Assembly (NCBI GenBank): GCA_964457265.1
Contig: CAYWEI010000001.1
Span: forward strand, 1-43,238
From: an uncultured Candidatus Saccharibacteria bacterium
Lineage (GTDB): Bacteria > Patescibacteriota > Minisyncoccia > Phycocordibacterales > Phycocordibacteraceae
Direction of reading: 5' to 3'
DNA: 43,238 bases
The notes under the pieces are model-generated. The model saw nothing but the letters and a program-made list of their open reading frames with translations. It made no database searches and had not been told where the DNA came from. Of this stretch, positions 13,429 to 42,834 are shown piece after piece; the stretch's first letter is position 1, and each line of letters opens with the position of its first letter. A program made the position numbers and the translations under genes.

Positions 13429-13441
13429 CCGTGCCCAAGAG

Positions 13442-13475
13442 TCCCGGAGAGGCAAGCGCTTCTCCGGGATTTTTT
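13442..13475. terminator. Intrinsic terminator between convergent genes
   Basis: cccggaga...tctccggg stem followed by a tttttt tract. Confidence 0.65.
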
Positions 13476-13517
13476 ATTGCCACTAAGCGTAAGGTCCGTC
13501 CTTGCGCAGATGCTGCT

Positions 13518-14123
13518 CTAAGTTTCCTTCCGGTTCTGGAGCGCTGCCGAGAGGGTGGTGGAGTCGGCGTACTCGAGCTCAGCGCCTGTGGAAAGGCCTC
13601 GACCGAGCTCAGAAAGAAGAAGGGAGCCGCGGAGAGGCTGAAGCACTTCGCGGATGCGGTCCGCGGTGTGCTCGCCCTCGCTCGTAGCCGAGAGCGCGAG
13701 TACTATCTCACGCAGGCCTTCGCGGCTCTTAATCTCGACGACGCGGATGAGGTCATGCTCCCGGATGACTCCTTTGCCGGAGAGCGTGAGGACGCCGCCG
13801 AGCACGAAGTAACGGCCGCGATAGGTCCCGGCGCGCTCCACGGCGGCCAGGTCCTGGTCCTTCTCGACGAGCATGAGGAGGGAGTCGTCGCGGGACGGGT
13901 CGGCGCAATAATTGCAGAGGCCGTCCGCATTCGCGGCTGCGAAGCGCATGCACATCTGGCACTGGCGTATATCGGCGCCGATATTGAGGATGAGATCGGA
14001 GAGACGCGCCCGGTCCGAGGGCGTGACCGCGAGCAGGTGGTAGACGAAGCGCTTGGCCTGCCTCGGTCCGATGCCGGGGAAGCGGGTGAAGGCAGCGGTG
14101 AGGTCTTCTATGCGGTCTCTCAT
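13518..14123 (-). CDS. recR: Recombination protein RecR
   Basis: HhH FPGIGPRQAKRFVYHLL, C4 zinc finger CQMC..CNYC, and a Toprim region. The start is placed at MRDRIEDL, because the longer track ORF runs through a structured inverted repeat. Confidence 0.9.
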   Translation of the reverse strand: MRDRIEDLTAAFTRFPGIGPRQAKRFVYHLLAVTPSDRARLSDLILNIGADIRQCQMCMRFAAANADGLCNYCADPSRDDSLLMLVEKDQDLAAVERAGTYRGRYFVLGGVLTLSGKGVIREHDLIRVVEIKSREGLREIVLALSATSEGEHTADRIREVLQPLRGSLLLSELGRGLSTGAELEYADSTTLSAALQNRKET

Positions 14124-14142
14124 AGGACGGGTATTGAAACTC

Positions 14143-14249
14143 GGAGAGGCAGTACGATTTTGGAGTACGGAATATTTCTCTGCTGAGAAATTTCCTCCTG
14201 CTCGGACCGTCGTCCTGCGCAGAGCCTCCAAAATTCGTACTGCCTCTCC
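14143..14249. repeat. Nested inverted repeat: outer ~23-bp arms plus an inner ~11-bp hairpin
   Basis: ggagaggcagtacgattttggag (14143-14165) pairs with ctccaaaattcgtactgcctctcc (14226-14249). The inner hairpin is ggaatatttctc-tgct-gagaaatttcc. Confidence 0.6.
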
Positions 14250-14278
14250 TCGTTTCTTGCGTGAGTCGGGATCATAGA

Positions 14279-15637
14279 CTAGAACTCGTTAGCGAGATCG
14301 CCGTAGCCGGCCTTATCGATAGACATGAAGGAGGTCCGCTTCTGGTCGAACATGAGGTCTACTTTGCCGGTAGGGCCGTTACGGTGCTTCTCGATGAGGA
14401 TCTCAGCGATGTTCTGGCGCTCGCTCTCAGGGTTGTTCTTATCCTCGCGATGGATGAACATGACGACGTCGGCGTCCTGCTCGATGGAACCGGAGTCGCG
14501 GAGGTCGGAGAGGCGCGGCTTTCCTCCGCGCTGCTCGACGGCACGGGAGAGCTGGGAAAGGGCGAGGACCGGCACATCGAGCTCGCGGGCGAGCTGCTTC
14601 AGGGAGCGGGAGATCTCGGTGACCTGCTGGACCATCGAGTCGGAGTTCTTGGTGCTCGTAGGCGACATGAGCTGGAGGTAGTCCACGATGATGAGGCCGA
14701 TGCCTTGCTCGCGCTTCAGGCGGCGCGCCACGGCACGCATGGCGAGGATATTGTTGCCGGGCTTGTCATCGATATAGATAGGGGCCTTGGAGAGGGTCTC
14801 GAGCGCATCCCTGATCTTGGCGAAGTCCTCGTCTGCACGCACGGCTCCGGTGCGGATCTTCCAGGAGTCGACGAAGGCTTCTGCAGAAAGCATACGATCG
14901 ATGATCTGATCCGAACTCATCTCGAGCGAGAAGATGCCGACGGGCACGTTGTGCTGCACGGCCGCGTTGCGAGCGATGTCGAGCGCGAACGAGGTCTTAC
15001 CGACCGATGGGCGAGCGGCCAGGATGATGAGGTCTGATTTATGGAAACCGGAGAGGAGATTATCGAGCTCGGGGAATCCGGTCGGCGTGCCGCGGATAGC
15101 GCCGTCGTTCTTCGAGAGCTGCTCGATGCGGTCCCAAGTCTCATCTACCTTGTCCTTGATGGCGACGAACTTATGCGCTGCGGTGGCATTGCTTATGGCA
15201 TAGATGGACTTCTCCGCGTGATCGAGGACCTCTACTGAATCGCGGGATTCGTCGTAGGCGAGCTCGGTGATCTCATGAGAGGTGTCGATGAGGGAGCGCA
15301 TGAGGTGCTTGCGGGAGACGAGCTCCGCGTAGTGCGCGAAGTTGCCAGGAGTCGGCGCGTTGCCCGCGAGCTCTGCGATGTATGCGCGGCCGCCCACGCG
15401 CTCGAGCGTGCCTTTGCCGGAAAGCCGTTCTCCTATCGAGAGGATATCGATAGGCTCGCCGCGCTCGGTGAGCTCGCGCATGCACTCGAAGATAGCCTTG
15501 TGCTTGTCGGCATAGAACGAATCAGGCCGGACGAGGTCGGAAATATCGTGAAGCGCGTCAGGCTTAAGGAGGAGGGCACCCAGAAGCGCCCGCTCGGCAT
15601 CGAGGCTCTGGGGCGGTACGCGCATGACGGTGTCCAT
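14279..15637 (-). CDS. dnaB: Replicative DNA helicase DnaB
   Basis: PPQSLDAERALLGALLL at the N-terminus and Walker A ARPSVGKTSF. At 452 aa there is no intein insertion. Confidence 0.95.
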   Translation of the reverse strand: MDTVMRVPPQSLDAERALLGALLLKPDALHDISDLVRPDSFYADKHKAIFECMRELTERGEPIDILSIGERLSGKGTLERVGGRAYIAELAGNAPTPGNFAHYAELVSRKHLMRSLIDTSHEITELAYDESRDSVEVLDHAEKSIYAISNATAAHKFVAIKDKVDETWDRIEQLSKNDGAIRGTPTGFPELDNLLSGFHKSDLIILAARPSVGKTSFALDIARNAAVQHNVPVGIFSLEMSSDQIIDRMLSAEAFVDSWKIRTGAVRADEDFAKIRDALETLSKAPIYIDDKPGNNILAMRAVARRLKREQGIGLIIVDYLQLMSPTSTKNSDSMVQQVTEISRSLKQLARELDVPVLALSQLSRAVEQRGGKPRLSDLRDSGSIEQDADVVMFIHREDKNNPESERQNIAEILIEKHRNGPTGKVDLMFDQKRTSFMSIDKAGYGDLANEF

Positions 15638-17176: not shown

Positions 17177-18094
17177 CTATATCCAGCGGTTCTTGCGAGC
17201 GATGAAGAGGAAGAGGAGGGCAGCGCCGAACATCAGGCCGGTGACGATCCAGAAATCTCCCGACTTGCCGATGATCGGCATATGGTCCGTCGCGTTCAGG
17301 GTGAAGATCGCGGCTACGAGCATCGGTGCGTAGCTTACGAATGAGAAGACAGTCAGGATCTGGATGATTCGATTCTGCGAGGCGGTGAGCAGCGAATCGT
17401 TCGTATTACGGAGTTCGCTCGCCATGGCACGGAGCGACGAGACGAGATCCGCGGCATGAGTACGCTCTGCTTCGATACGCGTCGCGTGCTCGTCGAAACG
17501 GGTACCGAAGAATGCGGGAGCACCGAGCATGGCGAGGAAATCCGCGAGAGGCTCCTTGTGACGGGCAAGCGCCGTCTCGAAGCGGAGAAGCACGCGGGTG
17601 CTCTCTGAGATCTTCCGGACCGCTGATCGCTCCTTGCGGGTGAATATGTCCCGCTCGATGCGCTCGAGCTTGCAGCCCGTCTGCTCGACCTCGTCGCTGA
17701 TGGCCCCATAGAGGCTATGCATCACGCGCGACAGGATCTCATCCGTCTTTATCTTTTTCGCGGTCCCGAGGAGCTCCTCCGCTTCGAATACCTTATGGAG
17801 GCTGTACAGCGGGTCGATCGTCTCATATCGCGCAGTGATCAGGAAATTCTTGCCGACGATGAAATCCACTTCTTGGATCCGCGTGCCGTCATCGCTGCCC
17901 GTGATAGGGAAATGCATGACCAGGTACGCGTAGCCCGGGAATGCTATGGCGAACGGGAAGGGGGTGGAAGTGGCGATCTCTTCCACGACACGCTCATCGA
18001 TCTCGAACTCCTCTATCACGTCGCGCACCTCTTCCCGCGTAGGCGACTCGAGATCGATCCATGTCACCGGACCGCGCGTATGTCGAATGATCAT
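17177..18094 (-). CDS. CorA-like divalent-cation transporter homolog with a non-canonical pore motif
   Basis: CorA-type architecture with two C-terminal TM segments. LTVFSFVSYAPMLVAAIFTLNATDHMPII aligns by eye to the CorA ...GIYGMNF..MPE region, but TLN replaces GMN. Confidence 0.65.
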   Translation of the reverse strand: MIIRHTRGPVTWIDLESPTREEVRDVIEEFEIDERVVEEIATSTPFPFAIAFPGYAYLVMHFPITGSDDGTRIQEVDFIVGKNFLITARYETIDPLYSLHKVFEAEELLGTAKKIKTDEILSRVMHSLYGAISDEVEQTGCKLERIERDIFTRKERSAVRKISESTRVLLRFETALARHKEPLADFLAMLGAPAFFGTRFDEHATRIEAERTHAADLVSSLRAMASELRNTNDSLLTASQNRIIQILTVFSFVSYAPMLVAAIFTLNATDHMPIIGKSGDFWIVTGLMFGAALLFLFIARKNRWI

Positions 18095-19495: not shown

Positions 19496-19921
19496 ATGAA
19501 AGTCGTACTACTCAAAGACGTGAAGAACGTGGGCAAGGCAGGATCTATCGTTGACTGTTCGGACGGGCACGCGCTTAACATGCTTTTCCCTCGCGGCATG
19601 GCGGCTCCCGCGACCGCGACGAACGTGAAGCAGGCCGAGCTCCGCGCTCAGCAGACCATCGACCGCAAGGAGCTCGATGAGAAGCTCATCGAAGCCCGTC
19701 TCGCCGTCCTCGCTGAAGAGCGCACCGTGATCACCAAGAAGGCGAACGACAAGGGTCATCTCTATGACGCGGTCGACGCGCGCGAGATCGCGAAGGCAGC
19801 CCAGCTTCCGGTAGAAGTCATCCGGCTCGAGAAGCCTATCAAGGAGCTCGGCGAGTTCGAGATCCCGGTATCGATGGGAGAGAATTTCGGAAAGATGACG
19901 ATCGTCATCGCAGCTGAGTAA
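19496..19921 (+). CDS. rplI: 50S ribosomal protein L9
   Basis: MKVVLLKDVKNVGKAGSIVDCSDGHALNMLFPRG. Confidence 0.9.
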   Translation: MKVVLLKDVKNVGKAGSIVDCSDGHALNMLFPRGMAAPATATNVKQAELRAQQTIDRKELDEKLIEARLAVLAEERTVITKKANDKGHLYDAVDAREIAKAAQLPVEVIRLEKPIKELGEFEIPVSMGENFGKMTIVIAAE

Positions 19922-19939
19922 GGTATAGCCTAAAGCAAG

Positions 19940-19969
19940 AAAAGCGCGCTACTTCGTGGCGCGCTTTTT
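19940..19969. terminator. Bidirectional intrinsic terminator
   Basis: aaaa-gcgcgctac-ttc-gtggcgcgc-ttttt. A- and T-tracts flank the stem on both sides. Confidence 0.7.
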
Positions 19970-19974
19970 GATAA

Positions 19975-20110
19975 TAGCAAAGTTCGCTCCACCGATGTAT
20001 CTTTTTGCATCCGTTTGACGGGTCCCCGCATAGTTTCATTGCGTCTCCCGTTAGTCGACTGAAACCACGCGTCCCGCCCGCACTCCTGAAAAAGTACACA
20101 TCGCTTCCGC
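19975..20110. repeat. Arm 1 of a diverged inverted pair of hairpin-forming elements (candidate structured RNA or foldback element)
   Basis: By hand alignment it matches the reverse complement of 20141-20275. Shared blocks are acgggtccc, agtttc, ctcccg, agtcg.ctgaaac, aaaaag and tac. Confidence 0.55.
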
Positions 20111-20140
20111 TTCTTTGCTTGGGTGTTAAAGAAAGTCACG

Positions 20141-20275
20141 GAGGCGAAGTACCTCTTTTTGTGTAGCGAACACGGGCCGTTCAGTTTCAGCCGACTTGCG
20201 GGAGGCGTGAGGAAACTGAACGTGGGACCCGTGGAGCGGAACAAAAAAGGTACTTCGCGGAGTGATCTTTCTGGA
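20141..20275. repeat. Arm 2 of the inverted pair; folds into a long imperfect hairpin
   Basis: gcgaagtacc (20144-53) pairs with ggtacttcgc (20249-58), tttttgt with acaaaaa, cacggg with cccgtg, and gttcagtttc (20179-88) with gaaactgaac (20212-21). Confidence 0.55.
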
Positions 20276-20278
20276 CAA

Positions 20279-20314
20279 GAAAAGAGCCGGATCCCTAGGG
20301 ACCCGGCTCTTTTC
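20279..20314. terminator. Bidirectional intrinsic terminator downstream of rpmA
   Basis: gaaaagagccggatccc-ta-gggacccggctcttttc, with one mismatch. Confidence 0.7.
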
Positions 20315-20327
20315 GGTAGGAGAGGCG

Positions 20328-20609
20328 TTACGCTGCTGCGAGGACGTCGACGACCTTCTTGATGACGGTGCGGCCATCGAAGTTGGTCTTGCGGCGGTTA
20401 CGGAAGGCGACCTTGCCCTCAGCTACGGCGTAGAGCGTGTGGTCACGGCCGACGCGGACGTTCTTCCCGGCTTCGATCTTCGTGCCGCGCTGGCGGACGA
20501 TAACCATGCCAGAGCGAGCTGCCTGGCCATCAGAAAGCTTTACCCCGAGAAATTTCGGTCCTGAGTCGCGCCCGTTCTTACTCGATCCTCCTGCTTTAGT
20601 ATGTGCCAT
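20328..20609 (-). CDS. rpmA: 50S ribosomal protein L27
   Basis: [35 protein letters not shown]. Confidence 0.95.
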
Positions 20610-22454: not shown

Positions 22455-22613
22455 ATGGGACTCGATTACAGCCAGAAGCGTCTCGTTTCCGCCCCTCTGC
22501 GCAGGAAAGCCGGGAGCAAGAAGGCCCAGCGCTTGCAGATGTACGCATTCTTCACCGGCCTCATGAGCACCCTCATATCCCTTGTGCACTTAGTGATCAT
22601 TGCGCTGCAGTAG
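22455..22613 (+). CDS. Micro-membrane protein (52 aa), paralog A
   Basis: Basic N-terminus plus one TM segment. It shares YAF.TG..ST.ISL...VIIA with the next ORF. Below the track cutoff; read by hand. Confidence 0.5.
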   Translation: MGLDYSQKRLVSAPLRRKAGSKKAQRLQMYAFFTGLMSTLISLVHLVIIALQ

Positions 22614-22633: not shown

Positions 22634-22762
22634 ATGGCAAAACGCACTAAGAAGCGATCGCGAGCGCAGAAGATCGGCCTAGAGGTATATGCCTTCTGGA
22701 CGGGCTTCGCGAGCACCATCATCAGCCTCCTCCAGGTCGTCATCATCGCTACCAAGCACTAA
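22634..22762 (+). CDS. Micro-membrane protein (42 aa), paralog B
   Basis: MAKRTKKRSRAQKIGLEVYAFWTGFASTIISLLQVVIIATKH, a paralog of 22455-22613. Confidence 0.5.
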   Translation: MAKRTKKRSRAQKIGLEVYAFWTGFASTIISLLQVVIIATKH

Positions 22763-22767
22763 TCCTT

Positions 22768-23010
22768 ATGGATGCCGACGAGAATCCCGAGTCCGGTCTC
22801 GTGAGCATGACCACTATCGCCTATGCGATCCAGGCTCTCCAGAACGACCGCGAATCCCTTGAGAAGGAATTCGCCGCGAGCGGCTCAGCTGAGCTGGCCG
22901 ACCTGCTCGAAGAGTTCCGTGGCGCTCAGAAAGAGCTCAAGGACGTGTACGAAGAGCTGTATCTGAAATATCCCAACGACGTCCCGTACGGGATGCTGAT
23001 AGGAGAGTAG
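22768..23010 (+). CDS. Acidic helical hypothetical protein (80 aa)
   Basis: The ORF starts 5 nt after paralog B. It is E/D/L-rich and looks coiled-coil-like. Confidence 0.45.
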   Translation: MDADENPESGLVSMTTIAYAIQALQNDRESLEKEFAASGSAELADLLEEFRGAQKELKDVYEELYLKYPNDVPYGMLIGE

Positions 23011-23082
23011 AATTCCACGTAATGGAGATCTCACTGCACGTTTCTAACTGATGCGTCCAGCAGGGAAGCGGCAGCGGAAAAA

Positions 23083-23138
23083 TCCTAGAAAGCACTTCCC
23101 CGGAGGTGTTTTTTCTCTTTCGGGGGAGTGGTCCCTTT
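23083..23138 (+). terminator. CACTTCCCC module copy 1: 9-bp stem, 20-nt loop hairpin with T-tracts
   Basis: cacttcccc (23083-91) pairs with gggggagtg (23112-20, one G-U). An alternative short stem cacttc/gaggtg is followed by tttttt. ggga/tccc is followed by ttttctccttttt. Confidence 0.4.
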
Positions 23139-23229
23139 TCTCCTTTTTAGCGTTATCGAATACCCGATCAGAATATTCTGAGCCGACCTTGTCGTGGAAT
23201 ATTTCTACCGATACCTAAAGAGGAGAGTA

Positions 23230-23292
23230 ATGATGTCTATGGGAAGGAAGTCCAGAAAGCGTCTAAAAGCCCTTCCAGGGAAGTCCTGCTAA
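23230..23292 (+). CDS. Candidate 20-aa basic micro-ORF (MMSMGRKSRKRLKALPGKSC)
   Basis: Strong SD AGAGGAGAG lies immediately upstream. The coding sequence overlaps a GGGAAG/CTTCCC hairpin, so it could be RNA structure instead. Confidence 0.25.
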   Translation: MMSMGRKSRKRLKALPGKSC

Positions 23293-23480
23293 TGTGCGCA
23301 CAATATACCTTTTACGTAATACAGTCTGGAAATACTGACAAAGTGGGCCGTATCTCGTCTCGCTCCTCTGTGTCACTTCCCGACCGTTTTCTCTTGAAAA
23401 TGGATTCGTCTGTGCCTGCGCCCCGGGTGTAGAGATTCATCCTTATCTCTCTATGTCGATACATTTCTCTCTATAAAATT

Positions 23481-23535
23481 CTTCCTCTGCCACTTCCCCG
23501 ATTCTCTAAAATGGGAACTGGGGAAGTGCTACTTC
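23481..23535 (+). promoter_or_regulatory. CACTTCCCC module copy 3: mutually exclusive hairpin and intrinsic terminator (attenuator-like)
   Basis: cacttcccc (23481-89) pairs with ggggaagtg (23510-18), 9 bp. Alternatively gggaagt (23511-17) pairs with acttccc (23521-27), followed by ttttattt. Confidence 0.4.
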
Positions 23536-23679
23536 CCTTTTATTTCATGTGGAGTGGAACAGGATCGTAATTTTAAGGATAGTGGTGAATTGTCAGAACC
23601 TAGAGACAAATTGAGTTTCTTTCGATGGATGATCTGCAGATACTTTCAGAGGCAGTGCCGTAATGAGAGGTACTGTATC

Positions 23680-23710
23680 TGATACAAAGCGTCTTGGCCT
23701 AAAGCCAAGA
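23680..23710 (+). terminator. Intrinsic terminator
   Basis: gtcttggc-ctaaa-gccaagac followed by acttttatta. Confidence 0.5.
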
Positions 23711-23756
23711 CACTTTTATTATGTCGGGAAGAGATAATATAGAAATTTTACTTAAT

Positions 23757-24059
23757 CTACTTCAATAACTCATCCGCGCGTTCCCGTATAAGTCGCTCTA
23801 TCTTGCCCTTGAAGAATCCGAGAGCTCCCGGCAGCTCGCCGTCGAGCTCGATGGTAGGGGAACCGACAGTCATGGTTCCTTGAATCGAATAGCCTTTAAC
23901 CGAGAAGCTGAACTCCGCTGTCTTCCCTGTCCATTTCTCTTTCAGATCAGACACTAAGTTTCCGTACTCTTTCTTCGTTTCCGTAAGGAGCTTCTTGATC
24001 CGCTTCAAAGCCTCGGCCTCGGTAAGGTCGTGCTTGATAGACAGGTGTATCTTCGCCAT
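23757..24059 (-). CDS. Polyhydroxyalkanoic-acid-system (PHA_gran_rgn)-like small protein
   Basis: 100 aa. Pattern I.H.L...EA..R...L......E......W.G....F......G.SG...V....I.L...L....G.FKGKIE..I resembles TIGR02610/PF09650, from memory. Confidence 0.55.
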   Translation of the reverse strand: MAKIHLSIKHDLTEAEALKRIKKLLTETKKEYGNLVSDLKEKWTGKTAEFSFSVKGYSIQGTMTVGSPTIELDGELPGALGFFKGKIERLIRERADELLK

Positions 24060-30246: not shown

Positions 30247-31335
30247 TTAATACGCGAGAGTCCAGGTGGTTCCGCGGATCGGGAAGGACCCTGCGACCGT
30301 TCCGTCGGTATCAAGGGATGCAACGTCCAGCATGAGACTCTTGCCTGCGGATGCGGATGCGCTCTTGCTCACCATCGCCTTGATAGTGAAGATGCGGAAC
30401 TGTCCGGGCGAGAATGTCGCGGCGAGAGGGACGAACGCAGTGCCTGTCTTTCCGAATGGCGTCGATCCTTCGATTCCGCCGATGGCGCCTACCGACCCGC
30501 CTTTGTCGTCGCTGGTGGTGAATCCGATCACTGAGCCTACCGGGGCCGTGCCGTTCTGCTTGAGCACGATGCCGTTCATGGTCGAGGACTCCGTGCTCCT
30601 GTTCGTCACCTTGAGGTACGTGACAGGGACTGAGCTGCCGGCCTGCGCCGTGCCTCCGAACAGGAGCGGTATCATGGAGACCGAGAAGGAGGATGCGCTG
30701 TTCGCGACCGCCTTACCGATGGTGAGGTTGCCGGTGACGAGCGTATTCAGTTTCAGATCCTTCGCGCCTAGCACCTCCACTTTGTAGCTGCCGTCATCGA
30801 ACGACTCAGGCACCTTCACTTCCCACTTCCCTCTCTTCACTTTCACGTCCTTGCCAGAATACAGGATGTCATCTCCATCGCTGCTCCGGATGATGACCCG
30901 CACCGTCTTGGTGCCTTTCGCCGTACCCTTGAGGACAGGCTTCGATGCCGCAGTCGCGAGTGAAGCCTTGTCGATGGTGGCGTTCGCTAGATAGGCAGTG
31001 AACGAGCAGTCCGCCTTGCGGCTGCCGGAAGCGAAGCGATAGGCATAGACCGTAGTCTTCTTCGGCGTGAACGATGCGGTCCCGTCGAGAGTTATCGGAC
31101 CTTTCTGGGAACCAGTCGCGAGCTTGGCGTTCTTGCTCTCCCAATCGATGCGAACAGAATCGCCTTCGTTGATGAGGATCTTCCCTTTCTTAGCTATGTC
31201 GATCGTGCCGTTACGGGTGGTTACGGAAAGCGAGCATGAGGGAGCGCTTGATGCTGCCTGGGCTTGCGCTGGCACAATGAGTGCCGTGCACAGCACGAGC
31301 GTTGCGCCGAGAGCTGGGATGCGTGGGTATGGCAT
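30247..31335 (-). CDS. Secreted beta-rich (Ig-like) hypothetical protein
   Basis: Signal peptide ALGATLVLCTALIVPAQAQA. The start is ATG 31335 or the TTG at 31356. Confidence 0.6.
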   Translation of the reverse strand: MPYPRIPALGATLVLCTALIVPAQAQAASSAPSCSLSVTTRNGTIDIAKKGKILINEGDSVRIDWESKNAKLATGSQKGPITLDGTASFTPKKTTVYAYRFASGSRKADCSFTAYLANATIDKASLATAASKPVLKGTAKGTKTVRVIIRSSDGDDILYSGKDVKVKRGKWEVKVPESFDDGSYKVEVLGAKDLKLNTLVTGNLTIGKAVANSASSFSVSMIPLLFGGTAQAGSSVPVTYLKVTNRSTESSTMNGIVLKQNGTAPVGSVIGFTTSDDKGGSVGAIGGIEGSTPFGKTGTAFVPLAATFSPGQFRIFTIKAMVSKSASASAGKSLMLDVASLDTDGTVAGSFPIRGTTWTLAY

Positions 31336-31408
31336 GAGGAGTGAGGTTACGCACAAGACTACAAATAAACACTATAGCGGATGGGCGCTGCATGAATAAA
31401 AAAGCAAC

Positions 31409-31456: not shown

Positions 31457-31690
31457 TTAGACTCCGCCGACCTGGTCGCCGACGATAGGATCCGATGCGT
31501 CCTCGATGAGCATAACGCCGCTGTGAACGCCTAGGTTCGGAGCGGTCATGAGCGCCTGGGATGCCGAAGCGGCTTCCGTCGTCCTGACCTCGCCGGTCGT
31601 GTTTACGTATGCGTACGTAGCCGCCATGGTGGCAGCCGGTACTGCGACGACTGCCGCAAGAGCGAAAACACTGAGAAGTACCTTTTTCAT
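31457..31690 (-). CDS. Small secreted protein (77 aa)
   Basis: MKKVLLSVFALAAVVAVPAATMA signal peptide. The longer track ORF upstream looks non-coding (AT-rich). Confidence 0.55.
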   Translation of the reverse strand: MKKVLLSVFALAAVVAVPAATMAATYAYVNTTGEVRTTEAASASQALMTAPNLGVHSGVMLIEDASDPIVGDQVGGV

Positions 31691-36562: not shown

Positions 36563-36621
36563 TTACCGTTTAGAAAGGGGGTGGCAATTTGGGACGATGT
36601 TGGAACGACTCTTACCACCTC

Positions 36622-37053
36622 CTAAGAATTACCCTCAAGTCCCTTCAAGGCTAGCGCGTATGCTTCTTCAGGATTAGTTGCTGCTTGCATATCCACTACG
36701 ATTCGCTCGAAATTCTCGAGATTACTTTTCAGCTCCGCTTCGTCCATGTTTTCTGCCGGCATTGTGTTTATTTCATAGAACGCATCTTCGAGGAGGTCGG
36801 CAACTCTACTTGCCGGATCGAGATTCGGAAGAAGGTCGCGCATTCCATTGAGCGCTGTATTCATAGGAACTAAATAAGCTGCCTGCATCTTCTGCTCAAA
36901 ATTCTCCGGTCCCTCCGTAGGACTTGGTGCACGAAATGATTCCATCGAGCTCATAAGGAATACGGTTAGGTTTAGATCATTAGTATACAGCGTGCCTGAT
37001 GCTGGCAGTCTGAGACGATGTTGGAACCGTCCTAGTAGTAACTCGGTTTTCAT
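36622..37053 (-). CDS. Orphan hypothetical protein, lower GC
   Basis: 143-aa ORF. An alternative start is MSSMESF at 36954. Bracketed by 25-nt direct repeats. Confidence 0.45.
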   Translation of the reverse strand: MKTELLLGRFQHRLRLPASGTLYTNDLNLTVFLMSSMESFRAPSPTEGPENFEQKMQAAYLVPMNTALNGMRDLLPNLDPASRVADLLEDAFYEINTMPAENMDEAELKSNLENFERIVVDMQAATNPEEAYALALKGLEGNS

Positions 37054-41730: not shown

Positions 41731-42834
41731 CTACGTGCGTCGTTTGGTCCGGTGCGCGGCGATGTTGAATATGATGCCCACGGTAGCGAGCGTAGCGAGG
41801 AGCGCGGTGCCTCCATGAGAGACGAACGGGAGCGGCAGGCCGGTGAGCGGCATGATGCCGAGCATGGCGCCGATGTTCATGAAGGCCGAGAGCGTGATGA
41901 GGAGCGTGAGGCCGGTCGCGGCGTACGAACCGAAGGCGTTGCTCGCTTGCGCGGCTATCGTGAAGCCGCGCGTGGCGAACGCGAGGAACAGGAGCACGAG
42001 CAAGACGGCGCCCAGGAATCCGAACTCTTCCGCGTAGACCGCGAAGACCGAGTCGCCTACCGGCTCCGGAAGATAATTGTATTTCTGGGCGCTCTGCCCG
42101 AACCCGCGTCCCAGGAGCTGGCCTGAACCGACGGCGATCAGAGACTGCTGGATCTGGTATCCGCTGCCGAGCCCGTCATGCTCGGGGTGTATGAAAGTCG
42201 CGACACGGCTCATGAGGTACGGGCGGGTAGCGACCAGTCCTCCGAGCACGATGAGCGCCATCACGAGCAGGATGGCGAAATCCCGCCACTTCGCTCCCGC
42301 GAGGAAATAGAGCGCGGCGGAAGTCGCTCCGATGATGAGCGTAGTCGACGTGTTCGGCTGCGCGAGAAGAAGCAAGGATGGAATGCCGACGATGAGGGCG
42401 AACGGGATGAGTCCGTGCTTGAAATCCTTAAGCTTGTCTTTCGCTTGCGCCAGGAAGAGCGCAAGCATCATTATCACGGCGGGCTTCAGGAACTCTGCGG
42501 GCTGCACGGTAATGGGCCCTAGTGCGATCCAGCGCGTAGCCCCTCCTGCGTGCATGCCTACGCCGGGGATGAATACTGCCGCCGTAAGCAGCAGTGCGCA
42601 TATATAGAATGGTATGACCGCCTTCTGGATCCATTCCGGCGGCGCGAACCTTATCCCTATGATAGCTATGACGCCCGGGATGAGGCCGAGCACGAGCTGC
42701 GTGATGGCGAGACGCCCTATCGAGGAGCCTTCGCGCGCAAGGAGCCCGAGAGCGGCCGAGAGGAATATGGCGGCCCCTCCGATGACGAGGATTGCGACGA
42801 TGAGGGCGAATACTCGGTCTCCGGATAATCTCAT
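41731..42834 (-). CDS. ftsW: FtsW/RodA/SpoVE (SEDS) family protein
   Basis: Ten-TM SEDS pattern: QPAEFLKP, GYQIQQSLIAVGSG, LPEPVGDSVFA, PFVSHGGTA. Confidence 0.9.
   Translation of the reverse strand: MRLSGDRVFALIVAILVIGGAAIFLSAALGLLAREGSSIGRLAITQLVLGLIPGVIAIIGIRFAPPEWIQKAVIPFYICALLLTAAVFIPGVGMHAGGATRWIALGPITVQPAEFLKPAVIMMLALFLAQAKDKLKDFKHGLIPFALIVGIPSLLLLAQPNTSTTLIIGATSAALYFLAGAKWRDFAILLVMALIVLGGLVATRPYLMSRVATFIHPEHDGLGSGYQIQQSLIAVGSGQLLGRGFGQSAQKYNYLPEPVGDSVFAVYAEEFGFLGAVLLVLLFLAFATRGFTIAAQASNAFGSYAATGLTLLITLSAFMNIGAMLGIMPLTGLPLPFVSHGGTALLATLATVGIIFNIAAHRTKRRT

Follow-up and report, generated by a model that had tools for sequence, protein, structure and literature searches.

Between the convergent genes rplI and rpmA, the 43,238-nt stretch of DNA analyzed here (contig CAYWEI010000001.1; hereafter the window) carries an insertion of ~355 nt that consists of two diverged, mirror-oriented copies of a hairpin of ~115 nt. 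The hairpin has been maintained through compensatory change, such that selection for structure is visible in the comparison of the two copies, and the element belongs to no described family. At a probability of roughly 45%, we favor a reading in which the copies are two paralogous, outward-facing genes for small structured RNAs (sRNAs), each with its own terminator, that together form a lineage-specific module. This reading draws on the inverted homology of the copies, the compensatory conservation of the hairpin, an asymmetry between the strands, the terminators, and an empty site in related genomes.

Two inverted copies of one hairpin

Local alignment of arm 2 (20141-20275), read on the plus strand, to arm 1 (19975-20110), read on the minus strand, yields a score of 57, compared with 16.0±2.4 (maximum 29) for 1000 dinucleotide shuffles and only 18 when the arms are aligned in the wrong relative orientation. 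These scores establish the arms as genuine inverted copies and not one simple palindrome, in agreement with the original prediction. The similarity is real but lies at the bottom of the two-thirds to three-quarters that had been estimated: 89 of 142 alignment columns are identical, or ~65% of aligned bases. The sequence of the apical loop had also been described as conserved in inverted orientation, and a search of the 43 kb finds the 24-nt apical motif, GTTTCAGYCGACTNNCGGGAGNCG, exactly twice, once per arm and on opposite strands, as GTTTCAGTCGACTAACGGGAGACG in copy 1 (20042-20065, minus strand) and GTTTCAGCCGACTTGCGGGAGGCG in copy 2 (20184-20207, plus strand). No chance matches to this motif are expected, even with three mismatches allowed. 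On each outward strand the hairpin is followed by a conserved tail of ~20 nt, GGAGYGAWCUUU, and then by a terminator. The tail occupies 19972-19990 on the minus strand in copy 1 (GGAGCGAACUUUGC...) and 20259-20278 on the plus strand in copy 2 (GGAGUGAUCUUUCUGG...), and the corresponding alignment columns, 123-142, are 60% identical between the copies.

The hairpin of copy 1 spans 19991-20104, with the minus strand as the probable sense strand, and the hairpin of copy 2 spans 20144-20258, with the plus strand as the probable sense strand by homology with the minus strand of arm 1. A covariance model built from both arms and run with filters off (model R1) scores them at 149.7 and 162.7 bits, respectively. 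That each arm folds on itself into a long hairpin holds for arm 2 on both strands (plus, -62.4 kcal/mol, z = -6.2; minus, -53.9 kcal/mol, z = -6.9) and for the minus strand of arm 1 (-51.0 kcal/mol, z = -4.3), but not for the plus strand of arm 1, which reaches only -29.9 kcal/mol (z = -1.2). Among the 8620 segments of 140 nt in the 43 kb, arm 2 ranks third in stability. The hairpin is interrupted by a purine-rich 3x3 internal loop, a 3x2 loop, and a 5-nt bulge (GGGA), and carries the conserved apical motif.

The stems of the two copies differ in sequence and agree in structure. The RNAalifold consensus of both sense-oriented copies contains 38 pairs, of which 8 are compensatory and 5 carry a one-sided change that creates or removes a G·U; no pair is broken. 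As a guard against circularity, the minimum-energy structure of arm 2 alone (44 pairs) was projected onto arm 1. In this projection 93% of the cells pair, compared with 40-48% after the partner has been shifted by 1-3 columns, and 8 double changes are counted, compared with 0-1 in the shifted controls. A neutral simulation, in which the observed 38 substitutions (23 transitions and 15 transversions) were placed randomly on arm 2 in 2000 trials, leaves 27.9±2.7 of the 44 pairs intact (maximum 37), and arm 1 retains 38 of 44. The simulated copies fold at -30.9±5.6 kcal/mol; in the same comparison arm 1 folds at -46.6 kcal/mol (P = 0.006). The original prediction had tied its case to homologous copies or covariation anywhere: no homologues were found, but the covariation between the two copies is clear.

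The pairing pattern also distinguishes the strands. On its minus strand, arm 1 forms 37 Watson-Crick and 5 G·U pairs with no opposed A·C; the neutral simulation gives G·U and A·C about equally (6.4 vs 6.1). Arm 2 on its plus strand, with 43 Watson-Crick pairs and 1 G·U pair, is nearly all Watson-Crick and carries little strand information. The consensus fold of the sense pair (arm 2 plus, arm 1 minus) has an energy of -45.9 kcal/mol, compared with -26.2 kcal/mol for the reverse complement. Because of the G·U and A·C counts and the consensus energy, the outward-facing strands are favored as the RNA, or at least as one specific single strand.

The absence of a convincing open reading frame (ORF), also proposed originally, is upheld. 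Indels of 1 nt between the copies shift any common frame. A 104-amino acid ORF on the minus strand (19930-20244), which spans both arms, has no Pfam match, and an exhaustive HMMER search of 1.84 billion representatives returned only two artifactual multi-stretch hits to repetitive proteins. A six-frame pseudo-protein query against 5.8 billion proteins returned nothing at E up to 10.

Nor does the element belong to a known RNA family, in line with the original prediction. Rfam 15 has no gathering-level match anywhere in the window, and relaxing the threshold to E up to 10 for 19800-20450 returns only terminator-driven or spurious matches, of which Thr_leader scores highest (24 bits; threshold, 55). 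The window holds no tRNA or tmRNA genes. No third copy was found in the 43 kb by repeat search, by the motif with three mismatches, or by model R1, and the element is absent from eight loci of relatives. A 29-nt match at 31659-31687, considered as a further copy, is a chance match within the signal-peptide coding region of a small gene. Scans with the core motif gave one match in GTDB (185,579 species-representative genomes) and one in JGI metagenomes, both in high-GC coding DNA with no hairpin and in agreement with the ~1 chance match expected for 20 specified bases. In IMG/VR there was no match to the core motif or to two further gapped motifs, and blastn against phages and plasmids was empty. 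The motif scans demand exact matches, and diverged homologues could escape them. A literature search on structured RNAs or miniature inverted-repeat transposable elements (MITEs) of the candidate phyla radiation (CPR) found nothing relevant.

The rplI/rpmA junction and its terminators

The left flank of the element is rplI, which encodes ribosomal protein L9 (19496-19921, plus strand; Pfam L9_N and L9_C matches), and the right flank is rpmA, which encodes ribosomal protein L27 (20328-20609, minus strand; Pfam L27 match, E = 2e-30). The genome is assigned to the Parcubacteria (Paceibacterota, CPR), and the L9 protein of the window shares 87% identity with its counterpart in Parcubacteria bacterium C7867-004. 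The original prediction had drawn attention to the length of the spacer between these convergent ribosomal-protein genes, correctly so: it measures 406 nt, compared with gaps mostly below 100 nt elsewhere in this compact genome, as judged from a rough gene map.

In relatives the same spacer is short. It measures 65 nt in C7867-004 (L002), 60 nt in L004, and 78 nt in L013, the L9 proteins of which are 87%, 83%, and 72% identical to that of the window, and it holds one bidirectional terminator in each case. These short, one-terminator spacers indicate that ~19923-20278 of the window, comprising the left terminator, both arms, and the center, is a probable lineage-specific insertion. A 9-nt direct repeat, CAAGAAAAG, lies at the edges of this segment (left copy, 19936-19944; right copy, 20276-20284) and could be a target-site duplication or a product of chance. 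The left copy lies ~27-30 nt outside the start of the inverted repeat (~19972), and both copies fall within terminator A-tracts. Given this location and the gap between the direct repeat and the left end of the inverted repeat, the pair hints only weakly at a target-site duplication, with chance a plausible source.

Each arm had been said to abut a terminator with both A- and T-tracts, and both stems were located. The left bidirectional intrinsic terminator (19940-19968) has an A-tract, a GC-rich stem, and a T-tract, with 13-nt arms that are 92% complementary and that fold. It is absent from the relatives and would be predicted to stop both the rplI transcript (plus strand) and an arm-1 RNA (minus strand). 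The right bidirectional intrinsic terminator (20279-20314) has 18-nt arms that are 94% complementary. It is the ancestral rplI/rpmA terminator, homologous to the single one of the relatives: by blastn it matches L004 at 85% over 62 nt, and L002 is also matched. An intrinsic terminator with a T-tract in the sense direction is thereby present 3' of each sense strand.

The assembly of the left junction is supported by L001, an independent Logan assembly of the same strain, which is 99% identical over 115 nt, contains the left terminator with one loop mismatch, and breaks inside arm 1. For the right junction, the sole independent contig found (L011) begins inside rpmA. The exact L27 protein of the window is not on record. 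The arms have diverged by 35%, which excludes an assembly artifact.

In this clade, the junction between rplI and rpmA is a hot spot at which individual lineages carry insertions of their own. Genes are found there in L005 (3637-4368, 243 amino acids), L010 (1131-1754, 207 amino acids), and L003 (3504-3869, at least 122 amino acids), the last of which has a different downstream gene. These are unrelated genes with signal-peptide or transmembrane-like features and no Pfam domain. The spacer of the window shows no similarity to any of them, and the idea that it is a remnant of such a gene was rejected.

Between the two hairpins lies the center (20105-20143), which contains a quasi-palindrome, TTCTTT (20111-20116) and AAAGAA (20128-20133), together with a weak promoter-like site. 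The elements of this site, as originally described, do exist, with TTCCGC at 20105-20110, a 16-nt spacer, and TAAAGA at 20127-20132, but the site fails a sigma-70 scan, and TAAAGA does not end in T, unlike the -10 boxes of other genes in this genome. The proposal of divergent transcription from the center thus finds no credible promoter in the ~30 nt between the arms, and divergent transcription is therefore put forward on structure and terminators only.

Elsewhere in the window many genes have clear -10 boxes (TATAGT, TATACT, TAGAAT), which often lie just 7-14 nt upstream of the start codon. Examples lie upstream of the minus-strand genes at 17177-18094, 30247-31356, 41731-42834, and 14279-15637. 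This arrangement suggests that the mRNAs of this organism commonly have a very short leader or are leaderless.

Readings of the element and other features of the window

Under the favored reading, transcription of copy 1 would run along the minus strand from ~20110 down to ~19936 and that of copy 2 along the plus strand from ~20140 to ~20318. Each RNA is predicted to be ~175-180 nt long and to consist of a 3-6-nt leader, a rod-like hairpin of ~115 nt with 38-44 pairs, a tail of ~20 nt, and an intrinsic terminator; models of the full-length sense RNAs fold modularly into hairpin and terminator for both copies. The ~355-nt module would have been inserted beside the ancestral rplI/rpmA terminator in this lineage, or else lost from the relatives. 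Transcription of the module, its start sites, and the roles of its RNAs belong to this model and are to be read as predictions.

The composition of the sense strands offers one possible role. GGA occurs 8 and 7 times per 143 nt on the two sense strands, compared with a background of ~3, and UCC does not occur; only 1.6-3.8% of windows of the sequence reach 8 or 7 GGA. Both copies retain five GGA/GGAG motifs at sites with weak pairing or none, namely the 5' leader, the apical loop (CGGGAG), the 5-nt bulge (GGGA), the purine-rich 3x3 internal loop (CGGA), and the 3' tail (GGAG). Because these conserved motifs are unpaired and because GGA is abundant where UCC is absent, we considered, with low confidence, that the RNAs could act as a decoy for a GGA-recognizing protein such as CsrA or could pair with pyrimidine-rich, CCUCC-like sequences. 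Expression of csrA has been reported, in general terms, among ultra-small groundwater prokaryotes (PMC9938205), which makes a CsrA decoy only plausible. The boldest form of the idea is a long shot: a hitherto undescribed class of rod-shaped CPR sRNAs whose exposed and conserved GGA/GGAG(G) motifs would titrate a CsrA-like regulator or the anti-Shine-Dalgarno end of 16S rRNA, the element being a translational decoy that an organism with a minimal genome acquired in a mobile two-gene module.

Several results weigh against small RNA genes. No homologue was found in any collection searched, so that only two sequences are available, both of them paralogues, and the covariation rests on one comparison between them. 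Templated correction in DNA quasipalindromes can also yield changes that look compensatory. Unpaired positions are, overall, less conserved than paired ones (50% vs 72%). The G·U asymmetry of 5 to 0 reaches only about P = 0.03, and the enrichment of GGA over dinucleotide shuffles is modest (P = 0.03 and 0.10). A sigma-70 scan of 19850-20400 yields no promoter-like site, and there is no TAnnnT box on either strand of 20105-20143. A tblastn search with CsrA of E. coli and B. subtilis did not find csrA in the 43-kb window.

The best-placed alternative, in our estimation unlikely, is that the segment is a DNA-level foldback or non-autonomous mobile relic, either MITE-like or a strand-specific single-stranded DNA hairpin, inserted at the A-tract of the ancestral terminator. 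Its hairpins would be DNA structures or recognition sites and not RNA genes. The original prediction had itself allowed for a foldback or MITE-like element, and part of that alternative fares well: the empty site in the relatives, with its single terminator, and the copies of CAAGAAAAG at both edges of the window-specific segment agree with it, as do the variability of the junction within the clade, where L005 and L010 have received other genes, the failure to find a promoter, and the break of the independent assembly inside arm 1. The remainder of the evidence does not. The 43 kb contain no further copy, the core motif is lacking as a hairpin element in the species genomes, metagenomes, and IMG/VR, and phages and plasmids gave no match. 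The direct repeat stands apart from the ends of the inverted repeat, with 30 nt of the left terminator in between, and within A-tracts it is plausibly fortuitous. Furthermore, the stems covary instead of staying constant, unlike terminal repeats bound by a transposase, and the poor fold of the plus strand of arm 1 means that a symmetric cruciform is not conserved.

Next in order, and likewise unlikely, is a cis-acting element at the 3' ends of the rplI and rpmA transcripts, which converge and are highly expressed. It would serve as a back-up terminator, an insulator, or a block to 3'-exonucleases. On read-through the arms would pair with each other into an imperfect duplex of ~130 bp, with a function like that of REP/BIME sequences in enterobacteria. 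Such an element, placed between convergent genes, would need no promoter of its own, and a T-rich stretch follows each of the hairpins in both orientations. Folded in full as a single transcript, the spacer does form a giant inter-arm duplex (minus strand, -186.4 kcal/mol, z = -10.7; plus strand, -203.4 kcal/mol, z = -12.1), and a second convergent spacer of the window, at 14125-14265, also holds a very stable long hairpin. However, a strong terminator already precedes the hairpins for each gene, and the relatives do with one spacer of 60-78 nt. Pairing within each arm is preserved (0-6 broken pairs), whereas complementarity between the arms is only ~65%, which argues for the individual hairpins as the selected units. 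The G·U pattern favors the strand of arm 1 that is distal for rpmA read-through, and the conserved apical motif, bulge, and tail would be left unexplained by a mere stability element.

Quite improbable is a functionless quasipalindromic insertion whose hairpins are kept near-perfect, without selection, by templated (strand-switch) replication correction: the orphan status of the sequence, the negative homologue and promoter searches, and the standing of templated mutagenesis as an established source of "compensatory" double changes speak for it, but an insert of ~355 nt would have to persist without function in a very compact genome, correction of DNA would not be expected to leave more G·U than A·C, and hairpin-templated repair could not maintain the asymmetric conserved motifs of the apical loop, the GGGA bulge, and the tail, which are unpaired.

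The non-coding RNAs of the CPR are almost uncharted, and a structured non-coding insertion of ~355 nt is conspicuous in genomes this compact. If transcribed, the element would be a lineage-specific pair of regulatory RNAs in an organism with very few regulators, and also a case of small RNA genes arriving by insertion at a terminator. If it is a DNA-level foldback instead, it would indicate that hairpin elements can invade even genomes of ~0.7 Mb. Its practical value is limited at present, as an orphan with two copies in one lineage permits no generalization without homologues or transcripts.

The window contains further structured or apparently non-coding segments. The long hairpin at 14125-14265 lies in the convergent spacer between an ORF at 13431-14186 (plus strand) and dnaB (14282-15637, minus strand) and consists of a closing stem of ~26-30 bp topped by two small hairpins. 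It ranks first in stability among the 140-nt segments of the 43 kb, with energies of -70.7 and -71.9 kcal/mol (z = -8 and -10). It was rejected as a relative of the arms, with an alignment score at chance level and no match to model R1. The second most stable segment of this length, 2661-2800, surrounds a perfect 21-bp palindrome with a 4-nt loop at 2729-2774 (TCACAAATGCAAAAACCGCCA / TGGCGGTTTTTGCATTTGTGA), which probably serves as a bidirectional terminator. Of the apparently non-coding regions, the largest (~750 nt) is found at 23010-23757; it has no ORF longer than 55 amino acids and no Rfam match at E up to 1, and the GC content of 23001-24000 is 0.455, compared with 0.55-0.60 around it. 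Two adjacent small ORFs (22455-22613 and 22636-22762, ~42-52 amino acids) resemble each other in a basic N-terminus that precedes a hydrophobic helix (...YAFFTGLMSTLISLVHLVIIALQ and ...YAFWTGFASTIISLLQVVIIATKH), and ORFs of 51-52 and 40 amino acids are called at the same place in relatives. A 25-nt direct repeat, TGGCAATTTGGGACGATGTTGGAAC, with 88% identity between its copies, occurs at 36582-36606 and 37003-37027, 421 nt apart, around an ORF on the minus strand (36622-37053).

Comparison with known systems

The closest parallel to the favored reading is found among terminator-ended bacterial sRNA genes that occur in paralogous pairs, such as PrrF1/PrrF2, OmrA/OmrB, and 6S-1/6S-2. As in these pairs, two diverged, non-coding intergenic copies of ~175 nt lie side by side with a conserved structure and their own Rho-independent terminators. 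Unlike these pairs, the copies are arranged back to back in inverted orientation, ~30 nt apart, with no recognizable promoter, and each forms one long rod-like hairpin with no Rfam family in place of short stem-loops with a single-stranded seed. A kinship with 6S RNA was rejected, as the hairpin has small internal loops (a 3x3, a 3x2, and a bulge of 5 nt) and no large central bubble, and no 6S match is obtained at E up to 10.

In terms of regulatory decoys, the element resembles the Csr/Rsm sponges CsrB, RsmY, and RsmZ in its GGA density of ~5-6 per 100 nt, in its conserved, unpaired or weakly paired GGA motifs, in its terminators, and in being paralogous, as the sponges often are. The GGA motifs of the sponges, however, sit in the apical loops of many short hairpins, whereas those of the element are in the bulge and internal loops of one long hairpin. 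The conserved GGA/GGAG set is also reminiscent of Shine-Dalgarno-like decoys.

REP units are ~20-40 nt long and are present in tens to hundreds of copies together with a RAYT transposase. REP, BIME, and REPIN sequences and the ERIC-type imperfect palindromes of proteobacteria share with the element an arrangement of palindromic units as inverted pairs, commonly set between convergent genes and within transcribed 3' regions, and a presence that varies among relatives. The units of the element, in contrast to REP, BIME, and REPIN units, are ~115-135 nt long and number only two, with none elsewhere in the 43 kb or in the databases; a RAYT gene was looked for only within ten Pfam-scanned neighbor genes and was not found there. 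MITEs and foldbacks such as Correia, RUP, and Nezha are likewise short non-coding insertions with inverted symmetry, an empty site, and an edge repeat, for which the 9-bp repeat is a candidate here. The element differs from them in that it is not multi-copy in the data, in that the candidate duplication is off the ends of the inverted repeat, and in that the arms are themselves hairpins with covarying stems. Integron attC sites were considered and rejected: the hairpin bases are GCGAAGTACC/GGTACTTCGC and CGATGTGTAC/GATACATCG, with no core sites (RYYYAAC ... GTTRRRY) and no cassette array. Finally, both flanking stems are of the kind found in bidirectional intrinsic terminators between convergent genes, whereas the hairpins between them are far longer, contain internal loops, and have no U-tract directly after them.

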